From positions 2,816,001-2,880,000 of the forward strand of contig OY762721.1 in the NCBI GenBank assembly GCA_963666345.1: DNA of 64,000 nt, written 5' to 3'. Source of the stretch: Desulfatiglandales bacterium (GTDB lineage: Bacteria > Desulfobacterota > DSM-4660 > Desulfatiglandales > Desulfatiglandaceae). The position numbers are program-made. This document shows, in pieces, positions 42,001-45,000 of the stretch (its first letter is position 1; each line of letters opens with the position of its first letter).

Positions 42001-45000
42001 AGAAAAGTGCAAAGGCTGTGAAGAGTGTGTTGATATATGCAGCCCAGAGGTGTTCGAGATGCGCGGCGGAAAGGCCGAGGCGGTGAATAAGGACAGATGC
42101 GTCGGCTGTGAAAGCTGTGTGGAGGTGTGTGAAAACGACGCCATTACCGTGACCGATACGAGACATAAATTGTCTGACCAGTGTGCCTTCCTGTTCAGGG
42201 AGATCCTTGCAGAGGACGAGATGACCGGGTGAGGGCAGGTCCTGTCCCGGCAGAGCCCGAACAAAAAGCATGTAAGACGAAGACGGAAAAGGGATTACCT
42301 CCCGTATTCATCAACCAGCCCCTTGAATATATCAAGCACCCTCTGAAGGTCCCTTCTGCTGGTGCCGAAGGTGGATATCTTCATTGATTTGGTAAGTCCA
42401 TGTTTTAGGCCGAAGATGTCGTTTTTTTTAAGCTCATTGTAAAGGAAGGCCCTCTTTTTGGGATGCACCTTTGAGATTTCATAGAATATATCCGTAATGA
42501 ACATCATGAGGTCGTGGTTGTGGGGCTTTTCCCCCATCTGGACGCAGCCCAAATTTTCGAGTTCCGATGAAAACCACCTGGCCTTTTCCACCTCCCCGTC
42601 CCAGTGCCTTACCCTTTCCACGACATCCGGAAAAGATGCCATGAGCGTAATCAGAGGGGTTCCCCTTACGGAACATCCCAGGCACTCAAGTTCCTTTCCC
42701 TTATTGGTGGGAGACTCCTGGCAGACAAGGTCTTCCCACTTCTTGTTGAGGCCCAGAACACCTATTGGACCGGCTGACGCCATGCTCTTGTGTCCGCTGC
42801 AGACAATGAAATCGGCGCCTATTTCGTTCATGTTTACAGGCATCCTGCCTACCGCATACGCGGCGTTCAGAAGAAAGGGAACCTCGTACTCCTGTGCAAT
42901 TTCACCAAGGCGACGGGCATTTGGAAGATTGCCCACATTCCCGTCCGGGTAGGTCAGCAAAAGAAGAGAGGGGCGGTGTTCCTTTATCAGTGGTATGTAA
43001 TCCTCCACGTCGATCAATCTTCTGTCATCATCTGAATTGGGAACCTTTACGATCTCAAGCCCTGCCCGCTGCGCGGCCACATCGGTTGAATAATGTCTGT
43101 TTCTGTCAACGACAATAACATCACCCGGTTTTGTAACGGAATGAATGACCATGAATTTTCCTTCACGGGCCCCATGGGTTATGCGGGTGGTGTCGGCGCC
43201 TATGAAGGCAGGCAGATCATTGAAGACAAATTCAGAGATAGGGGGATTCGATATCTTTTCAAGTGTACCTTTACAGTGATCACACACGGAGTAGCCGTCC
43301 CCGAATTCCTCAAGCGCCCTTCGGGCGGAAGGAGTGAGACGGGAGCCGGTCTGAAGCGGGTTTATGATTATACTTTCCCTGTGCTTTCTGGTGAGGTTTC
43401 CATATTTGTTCCTGAGTTTTTCCACATCGAGTGTTTTTTCAACTGCGTCTGCCATCTCTGCGTCCCTTCTAATACCTATTTCCTCTCGTATGTCACGCTC
43501 AGAAATATAGGTCCTTTTACCATGGTTTTCTTGTGTTCTCCCGTCATGTGCTCCTTTATCTTCCTGGGCAACTGCAGGTTTATGTCGCCCAAGGTCTTTG
43601 CCATCCTCGTCCGGAACAGCTCGCTTTTTTGGCCTTTTTCAAATGCCTCTTCAATCTTTGCCGCCATTCCGTGTGAGATTCCCTGAATATAGCTGAAAAG
43701 CGCGTTGTTCTCCCCGCCTTCAAGTTGACTGAGGATGTTTCCGTCTTCAATATAGACCTCATTGAATGTGGCCGGGCCAACCAGCCTTTTGTTTTCCTCT
43801 TTTTCAATTACCTTGATAACCATCTCATCATCCTCGTAAGCGATGAATTCGCATGGTGAAGCCGCGTCTCTGTTCTTGCGGACCGAAGCCTCAATCGCCC
43901 CGGCTATATTTTTCCCTCTTTCAGTGGTGGGAAAATCGATATATATGAGCGATTCTTCGGCAGATTCATCAGAGTAGTTGAGTGCCCCGAATTGAGGGAA
44001 GACAAGTTCTCTTATGTCGGAGTAACCTTTTGTGACCATCGTAAGCCTTTCGATTCCGAACCCCGCATTGAATACGGGATATTTGATTCCGAAGTTGGCC
44101 AGGGAAATGGGAGAATACATGCCTATGTCTCCAATTTCGAGCCATTCGCCTTTCCACTCGGCAAAGACCTCTTCCTCAAGGTCCTTGGCGTAATACTTGG
44201 ATGTGGCCTTTTTCCGCTCGAACCTGGCATCGCTGAATCCGAGTTCAAGAAGGAACCGGCGGGTTATCTTTTTCCCAGCCTCAAGTGACATGTTAGGGTC
44301 CATCACTACCATTGAGGCCGAATTATGAACCCTGAGATGTCCTTTGTCCTCCCGCTGTTCGTTCCTGTACCTGAGACCTGCGGAGAAAAGGGCGATGGGA
44401 TAGTTGGACGTGTCCTGCAGGGCCGCCAGCGTATGGTACCATGTGCCTGTCATATGTGTCCTCAGGGTCATGTTTGTCGGCTGCGGGGTCAACTGCTTGA
44501 ATTCGGGAAAACAGCTTGAGAGAATCTGGGTGGCCTGTTCCATCTCGATGTCTAACTGTTTGACGAGCTCCTCAATGAAATCGTCTCCCTCTATCTCACC
44601 CTTTTTATATGATCTCAGGATATCTTGCAGTATTTCAGAATCAAATTCGCCTATGATGGATTCAATCTGATGTATTTTATCATAGCTTAGTCCAATATCG
44701 GGTCTGGGCAGCTTTGCCAGATAAAATGCCCTGTCCAGGATGACGGGGGATTCCGGACCGTACTGTTTGTATACATCCTCATCAGATATTATGGTCCTGT
44801 TCTCCATTTCTGAAAAGCCCATTTTGGAGAGGATTTCTCTGCACTCCTGAACGCATTCCCTTAACGGGTGCAAGGTTCCCTTCTGCTTTATGTTGACAGA
44901 GGTGTTGCGTGGGATAAGATCTGCTGTCTCAATCCAAGCCTTCTCAAAGTTTCCCTTTGATTTTTTTATTATCGTCTTAATAGGTAGTTCAGCCACTTTA

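Follow-up and report, generated by a model that had tools for sequence, protein, structure and literature searches.

Textbooks, to our knowledge, place cysteinyl-tRNA synthetase (CysRS) in all bacteria and confine the O-phosphoseryl-tRNA synthetase (SepRS) route as sole supplier of Cys-tRNA(Cys) to some archaea. A survey of the genome of a Desulfatiglandales bacterium (GCA_963666345.1) had found a gene pair for SepRS and SepCysS (Sep-tRNA:Cys-tRNA synthase) but no CysRS gene, and had read this as a recent and datable replacement of one route by the other. The locus thus raises the question of how this organism, a marine-sediment bacterium, charges its tRNA-Cys, and how the pair came to be there. 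The window analysed is a stretch of 64,000 nucleotides whose position 1 is position 2,816,001 of contig OY762721.1, and coordinates refer to it unless the contig is named. The genome is one contig of 4,162,108 bp (4.16 Mb) with no N.

The SepRS-SepCysS operon and its substrates

Both genes were found where the survey had placed them, with the scores it had given. The sepS gene (43476-44996, minus strand, GTG start) encodes a SepRS of 506 aa that, as a whole protein, scores 431.9 bits against TIGR00470, above the curated equivalog cut-off of 380.65 (430.3 bits in a six-frame search of the genome), and matches the class II core PF01409 of Pfam with 156.2 bits. Its residues 5-504 align with residues 14-547 of the solved M. 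jannaschii SepRS 2du7 (E 4.5e-107). The Asn-X-Gly motif, which is changed in those SepRS-like proteins that are presumed not to use O-phosphoserine (Sep) (PMC8762117), reads N310-A311-G312 here; across 25 aligned sequences, N310 and G312 never vary. In bacterial-type SepRS a short loop replaces the helix next to Ile444, where m1G37 is recognised (PMC5424206); gaps of 3 and 14 residues that the host protein shows against M. jannaschii SepRS in the anticodon-binding domain (query ~424-441) would fit such a replacement. By the motifs checked, SepRS appears intact and would be expected to charge tRNA-Cys with Sep.

SepCysS (42295-43455, minus strand, 386 aa) scores 481.8 bits as a whole protein against TIGR02539 (curated equivalog cut-off 365.25), has SepSecS / Aminotran_5 matches in Pfam, and aligns with the A. 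fulgidus SepCysS 2e7i (E 2.7e-125). The lysine of its SGHKS motif, K223, aligns with K209 of 2e7i and is the predicted PLP-binding lysine. C58, C61 and C261 align with C39, C42 and C247 of 2e7i, conserved cysteines with a role in persulfide/Fe-S chemistry (PMC5424206). According to the same paper, the SepCysS lineage of bacterial operons is missing loop 144-147 and has no 8-residue insertion after residue 234; the host protein has a 4-residue gap exactly opposite 2e7i residues 144-147, and its alignment is unbroken across 234-235. With loop and insertion both absent, the host SepCysS is of the clade I type.

The two genes lie on the same strand with a 20-bp spacer, and of 80 related loci, 72 have SepCysS as the neighbour of SepRS. 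Upstream of sepS lies a non-coding, AT-rich leader (44997-45469, minus strand, GC 0.363) with a promoter-like TTGACA-18-TATTTT (45260-45231, minus strand), which is a consensus match only. A terminator-like hairpin at the SepCysS end (42283-42305, minus strand) is a weak candidate, because the pattern scan from which it comes gave 1 site where shuffled sequence averaged 4.4. No Rfam family was detected at E<=1 over window positions 41500-47200, leader included; a search of the leader for a SepCysSn-like small gene returned just ORFs of 20-63 aa that match no family. Nor does any family-matched ORF adjoin the operon, in scans that included no profile for a SepCysE or SepCysSn adapter. A 102-aa ORF downstream (41963-42271), with no family match and no homolog in the 80 SepRS loci, is probably spurious. 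Transcription of both genes is hinted at by short contigs, 96-99% alike, from a metatranscriptome library, a kind of library that can hold DNA.

The sole tRNA-Cys(GCA) gene (contig 2888408-2888483) has U73 and A37, in agreement with the survey, and an encoded CCA. This tRNA is native: its tandem with tRNA-Gly is conserved in relatives, and it differs from the tRNA-Cys of four relatives at 4-6 of 76 positions, the acceptor stem, GCA, A37 and U73 being identical. Its A37 is shared with the tRNA-Cys substrates that bacterial-type SepRS enzymes charged in vitro (PMC5424206, PMC8762117). The genes for O-phosphoserine supply are present, namely serC (477.1 bits, cut-off 443.6) and two copies of serA (663.2 and 617.1 bits, cut-off 454). 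The free-cysteine pathway is still there as well, as the survey had found, with cysK above its cut-off at 449.7 bits and a cysE-like gene of 162.5 bits, below the TIGR01172 cut-off of 210.65 and above that of EpsC, in an apparent nifU-nifS-cysE-cysK cluster. The SepRS-SepCysS route is therefore not the only source of cysteine here, as it is in some methanogens.

Loss of CysRS from conserved positions

The absence of CysRS was borne out by three models, each run in six frames over the whole genome. The best match to TIGR00435 (cysS) reached 36.6 bits against a cut-off of 340 and lies inside IleRS (controls positive in 14/14 genomes), the best to PF01406 reached 34.1 bits (14/14), and the best to PF09190 (DALR_2) reached 13.6 bits (13/14). 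The ORFs with weak matches are other class I synthetases, namely IleRS, LeuRS, MetRS, ArgRS and ValRS, and a tblastn search with the CysRS of a relative gave a best E of 6e-4, inside MetRS. The survey had allowed that a very divergent CysRS could escape PF01406; at E<=10, none of the three models gave a signal beyond the known paralogs. The single-contig genome is thus without CysRS, and a plasmid-borne cysS would escape this view. The survey's contrast with related genomes held, since cysS was above cut-off in all 40 relatives examined (24 of the same family and 16 of the same order), and SepRS was above cut-off in none of the other genomes of the order that were searched.

The loss can be seen in the DNA itself. 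In relatives, the canonical cysS is located directly upstream of uvrB in 19/19 loci, with ispF upstream in 15/19. In the host, whose UvrB is about 72-80% identical to those of its nearest relatives, ispF (contig 3829581-3830078) and uvrB (3827391-3829394) are separated by a 186-bp spacer with no cysS remnant. The second cysS-type gene of the relatives is a cysteine synthase-CysRS fusion, found in all 11 loci examined and near groEL in 8 of them; at this position the host has just a 173-bp spacer before groES, again with no remnant. No published account of such a fusion was found in the full-text literature, subscription journals being outside the search. Each of the family's two cysS-type genes is cleanly gone from its conserved slot, and because both slots are present and empty, with flanking genes intact, the absence of CysRS is not an assembly gap.

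Origin of the operon and alternative explanations

Of 131 genomes of the order, the host's alone had a SepRS above cut-off; the 401 genomes of the phylum held two, and the SepRS of the other genome is only 41% identical to the host's; the survey's sole case in the order therefore stands, with a denominator of 131 rather than 123. Also reproduced was its finding that the nearest SepRS outside the host's own 98% cluster is 64% identical and that the named matches come from Woesearchaeota, Desulfobacterales and Dehalococcoidia. In a tree from a quick search, in which aLRT is the sole measure of support, the host SepRS groups with DPANN-labelled sequences and apart from a Dehalococcoidia clade (aLRT 100), to which it is 50-54% identical over full-length matches. 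DPANN operons of the form SepRS-SepCysS(-tRNA-Cys), labelled Woesearchaeota and Nanoarchaeia, are the nearest named relatives (SepRS 58-61% and SepCysS 61-67% identical), share the gene order of the host and fall in the same clade; they differ in that no tRNA-Cys gene accompanies the host operon, for which the native host tRNA would serve. Distribution and quick tree fit the horizontal origin that the survey had proposed.

That the transfer was recent and can be dated is not upheld. The GC contents of the two operon genes, 0.473 and 0.498, are host-typical beside a median of 0.498, and among 1,686 ORFs their codon-usage deviations rank at the 10th and the 18th percentile, so that a compositional sign of recent transfer was rejected. 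No mobile-element genes were found among the 25 ORFs scanned (27450-58588). The sole integrase-family gene among them (55582-56535) adjoins proteasome-type and AAA-ATPase genes and, because of these HslVU-like neighbours, is probably a housekeeping XerC-type recombinase. The pfk gene upstream of the operon showed no synteny in six relatives' loci, and the borders of the acquired segment could therefore not be set. With host-like codon usage and GC, and with the host genus represented by this genome alone in the order-level comparisons, neither a recent date nor any dating of the swap is supported.

Nor is the host a lone case. Among 41 bacterial-labelled SepRS genomes, 29 gave no cysS match, while 37 had argS, and most of the SepRS-bearing Dehalococcoidia MAGs tested were without cysS; the M. 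jannaschii control gave no match in this test at E<=1e-30. Of nine archaeal-labelled SepRS genomes tested, seven keep cysS. Supported in the survey's interpretation are the lack of CysRS, the intact SepRS-SepCysS operon and the opposite state of the relatives.

We consider it likely that the two-step indirect route supplies the host with all of its Cys-tRNA(Cys), the operon having been gained horizontally and both CysRS genes then deleted. SerA and SerC would supply O-phosphoserine, the acquired class II SepRS would attach it to the single native tRNA-Cys (GCA, U73, A37), and SepCysS would be the second of the two enzymes by which cysteine is made on the tRNA. We infer that the operon arrived as a unit from a DPANN/bacterial-type pool of SepRS-SepCysS operons and coexisted with CysRS for a time, and that the canonical cysS, once located between ispF and uvrB, would then have been deleted, as would the fusion near groES. 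Free cysteine would still be made by the CysE-like enzyme and CysK, presumably for Fe-S clusters and other uses, and could no longer be charged directly onto tRNA.

One alternative is an artefact, in which CysRS is missing from the assembly through a gap, a plasmid or a misassembly, or DNA of another organism brought the SepRS operon into the contig as a chimera. The contig is not proven to be closed, as no terminal overlap was found, and completeness is estimated at 96.7% with contamination of 3.4%. However, the two empty slots refute this explanation for these chromosomal positions, and the cumulative GC skew forms a closed V with balanced arms, its minimum at 2.14 Mb beside dnaA and its end value close to its start value, which fits a whole chromosome. 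The operon also has host-like codon usage. A metagenome contig of 33 kb, independent of this assembly, carries it with the same right flank and differs at 12 positions over 7 kb, and five variants at least 98% identical lie on separate contigs. An artefact is thus very improbable.

We give equally little credence to an enzyme, divergent from or not homologous to CysRS, that would charge free cysteine and leave SepRS-SepCysS merely auxiliary. Free cysteine is made, with the cysK match given above, and a non-homologous enzyme would be invisible to profile searches, but the three models gave no CysRS-like signal beyond known paralogs, and the same pattern recurs in the 29 bacterial-labelled SepRS genomes. 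We know of no cysteine-charging enzyme other than CysRS that has stood up, and the ProCysRS proposal was reportedly withdrawn. The loss of two CysRS genes together with the gain of the only known alternative is most simply read as a replacement. It is likewise hard to believe that SepRS-SepCysS is ancestral in the order and was lost everywhere else without any horizontal transfer. Such an origin would suit an operon whose composition is indistinguishable from the host's and which no mobile genes flank, but it would need dozens of independent losses to yield the distribution in order and phylum, with the only other SepRS of the phylum so distant; moreover, both proteins have DPANN-labelled sequences as their closest named relatives (58-67% identity), ahead of Dehalococcoidia (50-60%). 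Replacement of CysRS after horizontal transfer is accordingly the reading that we prefer.

Comparison with known systems and meaning

The host has the same two-gene operon as the bacterial SepRS-SepCysS loci of Dehalococcoidia/Chloroflexi and Ca. Parcubacteria (Mukai et al. 2017, PMC5424206; Mukai et al. 2022, PMC8762117), with SepCysS of the clade I type in common (PMC5424206). It differs from the Dehalococcoidia operons in phylum and in its separate SepRS branch (aLRT 100). The two Chloroflexi genomes of the 2017 paper that were tested, RBG_13_51_36 and CG2_30_46_19, have cysS, which the host lacks, and in the host CysRS loss is visible as empty syntenic slots in a one-contig genome. The main texts of both papers and the part of their supplements covered contain no mention of CysRS absence in any bacterium, and no description of a CysRS-less bacterium was found in the full-text literature, again with subscription journals outside the search.

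With methanogens that have no CysRS, Methanocaldococcus jannaschii among them (Sauerwald et al. 2005, cited in PMC8762117), the host shares the lack of CysRS and SepRS plus SepCysS as the only known route to Cys-tRNA(Cys). In contrast to the methanogens, it is a bacterium that would have acquired the route, which in them is ancestral, and it keeps a cysE-like gene and cysK, while some methanogens are described as having no free-cysteine synthesis (PMC8762117). Its tRNA-Cys has A37, and theirs m1G37. Indirect routes of the GatCAB type are ancestral and widespread in bacteria. GatCAB with non-discriminating AspRS or GluRS (reviewed in PMC2330236) shares the concept of a missing aminoacyl-tRNA synthetase offset by misacylation and tRNA-dependent conversion; the host's route differs in having displaced a synthetase held to be universal in bacteria.

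The lack of cysS in most of the SepRS-bearing Dehalococcoidia MAGs tested is a wider pattern that is apparently unreported. We tentatively suggest, at somewhat less than an even chance, that CysRS is not universal in Bacteria and was displaced several times independently by transferred SepRS-SepCysS pairs: in this lineage, in the second member of the phylum, in most SepRS-bearing Dehalococcoidia and in Parcubacteria, and that in this order the pair replaced the coupling of cysteine synthesis and tRNA charging embodied in the fusion. Such a replacement of the fusion would hint that selection in sulfidic sediments favours keeping translational cysteine apart from the free pool. The host would also offer a natural bacterial SepRS predicted to work with a bacterial tRNA-Cys and a bacterial elongation factor, which is of interest to laboratories that incorporate phosphoserine by means of SepRS. 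The genome is present in sequencing runs labelled with an organism name, which may point to a culture or enrichment, and if so the host would be the system of choice for proving CysRS displacement. A bacterium with a normal-sized genome and free cysteine would here have abandoned direct charging, and an aminoacyl-tRNA synthetase would be displaceable, after horizontal transfer, by an analogous, non-homologous pathway. The DNA still lets one read what came before, in relatives that have two CysRS genes, and what came after, in the two empty slots.

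Loss of the CysRS genes

Six-frame profile searches covered the whole 4,162,108-bp contig of the Desulfatiglandales genome (G000), and the best matches to the CysRS models were 36.6 bits for TIGR00435 cysS (cut-off 340), 34.1 bits for PF01406, inside MetRS, and 13.6 bits for PF09190 DALR_2 (cut-off 22); the same models detected 14, 14 and 13 of 14 control genomes, respectively. These weak matches fell in the ORFs of IleRS, LeuRS, MetRS, ArgRS and ValRS, and tblastn with the CysRS of a relative gave at best E 6e-4, inside MetRS. With regard to a divergent CysRS that might escape PF01406, a reservation attached to the survey's finding, TIGR00435 and DALR_2 likewise gave only weak matches. 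The decisive evidence for the absence is synteny. All 40 relatives searched had cysS above the cut-off, and its neighbourhood was compared in 19 of them (13 of the same family and 6 of the same order), chosen because their contigs gave flanks. In all 19, uvrB directly follows cysS, the two genes often overlapping, and in 15 ispF is just upstream of cysS, usually after gmhA and a GSU2086-family gene; ispF was not in the fetched stretch of the remaining four. The gmhA-GSU2086-ispF-uvrB string is common to G000 and its relatives, cysS excepted: between ispF (contig 3829581-3830078) and uvrB (contig 3827391-3829394) lies a 186-bp spacer, in which a search up to E 100 revealed no remnant of CysRS. 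The three models, tblastn and the empty ispF-uvrB slot all agree that CysRS is missing, as the survey had claimed.

Most relatives also have a second CysRS. A second strong cysS match lies in a frame of about 770-865 aa (at least 769 aa) in 34 of the 40 relatives, and one of at least 261 bits is present in 38. In the relative G003 (L105:6664-8997, plus strand) it is a single protein of 777 aa: residues 15-305, in the N-terminal part, are a cysteine synthase (371.3 bits with the cysM model), and the C-terminal half, in which residues 314-776 score 395.8 bits, is a complete CysRS that includes DALR_2 and CysS_C. This fusion is encoded in 11 of the 11 loci fetched around second matches (66-72% identity), and relatives across the order carry it, at 772-803 aa, alongside the canonical cysS (L105, L124-L133). 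In 8 of the 11 loci groEL is no more than a few kb away, groES-groEL often being nearby, and in two (relatives G008 and G021) the fusion is located between groES and a gene for a 320-aa protein. The G000 ortholog of the 320-aa gene is 173 bp from groES; a fusion remnant was sought in this spacer and not found, and only a stand-alone cysK is left. Since both slots are empty without a remnant, the canonical cysS and the fusion have both been lost cleanly. The fusion may channel newly made cysteine to tRNA; our literature search found no description of it, and the accessible part of PMC2922099 contains nothing on it.

The G000 contig contains no N and has no terminal overlap, and its closure is therefore unproven. 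Its cumulative GC skew forms a V that reaches its minimum beside dnaA, at 2.14 Mb, and its maximum at 0.12 Mb, and ends at about its starting value, the shape expected for a complete chromosome opened close to the terminus. Two full-length dnaA genes lie 8 kb apart at the minimum (contig 2153839-2155107, plus strand, 391.9 bits; 2162948-2164264, minus strand, 421.4 bits).

The SepRS-SepCysS operon and its predicted substrates

The sepS gene (window 43476-44996, minus strand) encodes a SepRS of 506 aa with a GTG start (TIGR00470 431.9 bits, cut-off 380.65), and on the same strand, across a 20-bp spacer, is the gene for a SepCysS of 386 aa (window 42295-43455; TIGR02539 481.8 bits, cut-off 365.25). 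Pfam finds a class II PheRS-type core in the former and SepSecS/class-V aminotransferase folds in the latter. SepRS aligns end to end with the solved Methanocaldococcus jannaschii enzyme 2du7 (E 4.5e-107) and retains the Asn-X-Gly motif (N310-A-G312), which PMC8762117 uses to tell true SepRS from SepRS-like proteins. Two gaps relative to 2du7, of 3 and 14 residues, fall in its anticodon-binding domain, a placement by domain and not by Ile444; this is the domain in which bacterial SepRS are without the m1G37-binding helix, according to PMC5424206. SepCysS matches the Archaeoglobus fulgidus enzyme 2e7i (E 2.7e-125) and retains the SGHKS lysine K223 and three cysteines (C58, C61 and C261). Loop 144-147 and the insertion after residue 234 are missing, sequence features that mark the bacterial-operon lineage in PMC5424206. 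Both proteins join the known bacterial/DPANN-type operon family as new members.

The operon is preceded by an AT-rich leader of 473 bp that contains a promoter-like site, and an Rfam search of the leader gave no match. Contigs of 151-267 nt from the RNA library X8, 96-99% identical, fall on sepS, SepCysS and the leader, which does no more than hint at transcription. The genes around the operon belong to ordinary metabolism (pfk, pyk, TctABC and a URO-D/MtaA-like gene). Window 37436-41941 holds the TctC-TctB-TctA transporter genes and then the URO-D/MtaA-CmuA-like methyltransferase gene, which scores 73 bits, far under the MtaA cut-off of 235.

Among 47 tRNA genes, including tRNA-Sec, and a tmRNA, the genome has a single tRNA-Cys(GCA) (contig 2888408-2888483, outside the window) with U73 and A37, as the survey had it, and an encoded CCA. 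The tRNA-Gly/tRNA-Cys tandem is also present in relatives, and of the tRNA-Cys genes extracted from 21 of them, the four compared with that of G000 differ from it at 4-6 of 76 positions; the acceptor stem, anticodon loop and discriminator are identical in the sequences listed. It follows that the tRNA is native and was not co-transferred. Changes at D-loop positions 17 and 19, which of the 22 sequences only that of G000 shows, move the conserved GG one place, and may reflect relaxed or altered constraint after CysRS loss.

Phosphoserine can be supplied by serC (477.1 bits) and two serA genes. The free-cysteine pathway is kept, as claimed, in a nifU-nifS-cysE-like-cysK cluster (contig 1515273-1519202), from which the organism is predicted still to make free cysteine. 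Bacterial EF-Tu binds Sep-tRNA poorly, as known from phosphoserine incorporation studies in E. coli, and misincorporation of phosphoserine would therefore be limited. A methanogen-type homocysteine biosynthesis gene, HcyBio, is also present (contig 2923094-2924164, minus strand; PF01837 514.9 bits); its ortholog is directly beside pfk, the gene flanking the SepRS operon in G000, in two relatives (L138, L139).

Origin, age and distribution of the pair

Run X1 of the strain itself matches window 39000-49000 without any difference, and in X4, a sediment metagenome of independent origin, a 33-kb contig matches window 41970-49000 at 99.8% identity, with 12 differences. Left of 41970, just downstream of SepCysS, the X4 contig is only about 80% alike (window 39400-41970) and 1474 other letters replace 1391; the break could be a recombination mosaic of related strains or a chimeric contig. 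Besides the 4.16-Mb contig, the 98% cluster of this SepRS contains five variants, which lie on different contigs, the longest of 206 kb.

Above the cut-off, sepS was found in one of 131 genomes of the order; across the phylum it was found in two of 401, of which the second is G257, a MAG of another family (90% complete, 6% contamination). Its SepRS (L180:614-2080; 473 bits, 656-aa open frame) is 41% identical to that of G000 and sits on a 2.9-kb contig, and no cysS match was obtained in this MAG; this is a separate case, or else contamination. The best SepRS match outside the 98% cluster is 64% identical. In a quick ML tree of 86 rows (G000, P0001-P0060 and 25 of 80 genome loci, picked so that every label was covered), rooted at the midpoint only, G000 and P0001 are sister to P0002 (aLRT 97) and nested in a clade with Woesearchaeota- and Nanoarchaeia-labelled SepRS, which an aLRT of 100 sets apart from the Dehalococcoidia-, Parcubacteria- and Desulfobacterales-labelled groups. 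Some labels look unreliable, for instance 'Methanosarcinales' on genomes of 0.9-1.7 Mb. SepCysS identities rank in the same way (61-67% for DPANN-labelled and about 60% for Dehalococcoidia proteins), which fits a transfer of both genes as a unit.

The swap had been described as recent and datable, and neither description held: the GC content and codon usage of the operon are host-like, no mobile genes occur among the ORFs scanned, and with G000 the only genome of its genus in the comparison nothing marks the age of the event. Nor is it a lone case. We took a census of cysS (E<=1e-30, argS as control) in 50 of 80 SepRS-bearing genomes from a species-representative collection, favouring loci on longer contigs; MAG completeness values were not given. 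cysS was present in 19 of the 50 (argS in 46), in 12 of 41 bacterial-labelled genomes, namely 39 Chloroflexota and 2 Parcubacteria (argS in 37), and in 7 of 9 archaeal-labelled ones (argS in 9), the genome G186, flagged unpublished, being counted only in the first and last of these. That leaves 29 of the 41 bacterial-labelled genomes likewise without a cysS match, 25 of them with argS. A second cysS match in the Nanoarchaeia-labelled genome G161 (C145:1558-3033, 373.5 bits) has 16 in-frame TGA codons, and its contig looks like that of a TGA-recoding organism in the bin.

CysRS loss and the proposed indirect route

The main texts of PMC5424206 and PMC8762117 and their accessible supplements make no mention of CysRS absence in bacteria; the survey had suspected that supplements might already list such bacteria. 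Both tested Chloroflexi genomes named in the former, a 2017 paper, have cysS, which may explain its silence. In the parts available, PMC11580382 and PMC10810186 go no further than the general statement that organisms without CysRS are served by SepRS.

The survey's observation of a SepRS-SepCysS pair in a genome without CysRS was confirmed. Its interpretation stands as far as loss of CysRS and reliance on the acquired pair are concerned, and not as a recent, datable or lone case. The genomic evidence supports this loss and reliance well, and we consider them quite probable. The obligate indirect route of methanogens is known; in contrast, this organism is a bacterium still predicted to make free cysteine. 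What would be new is an obligate indirect route in such a free-cysteine-making bacterium, after the loss of two CysRS genes.
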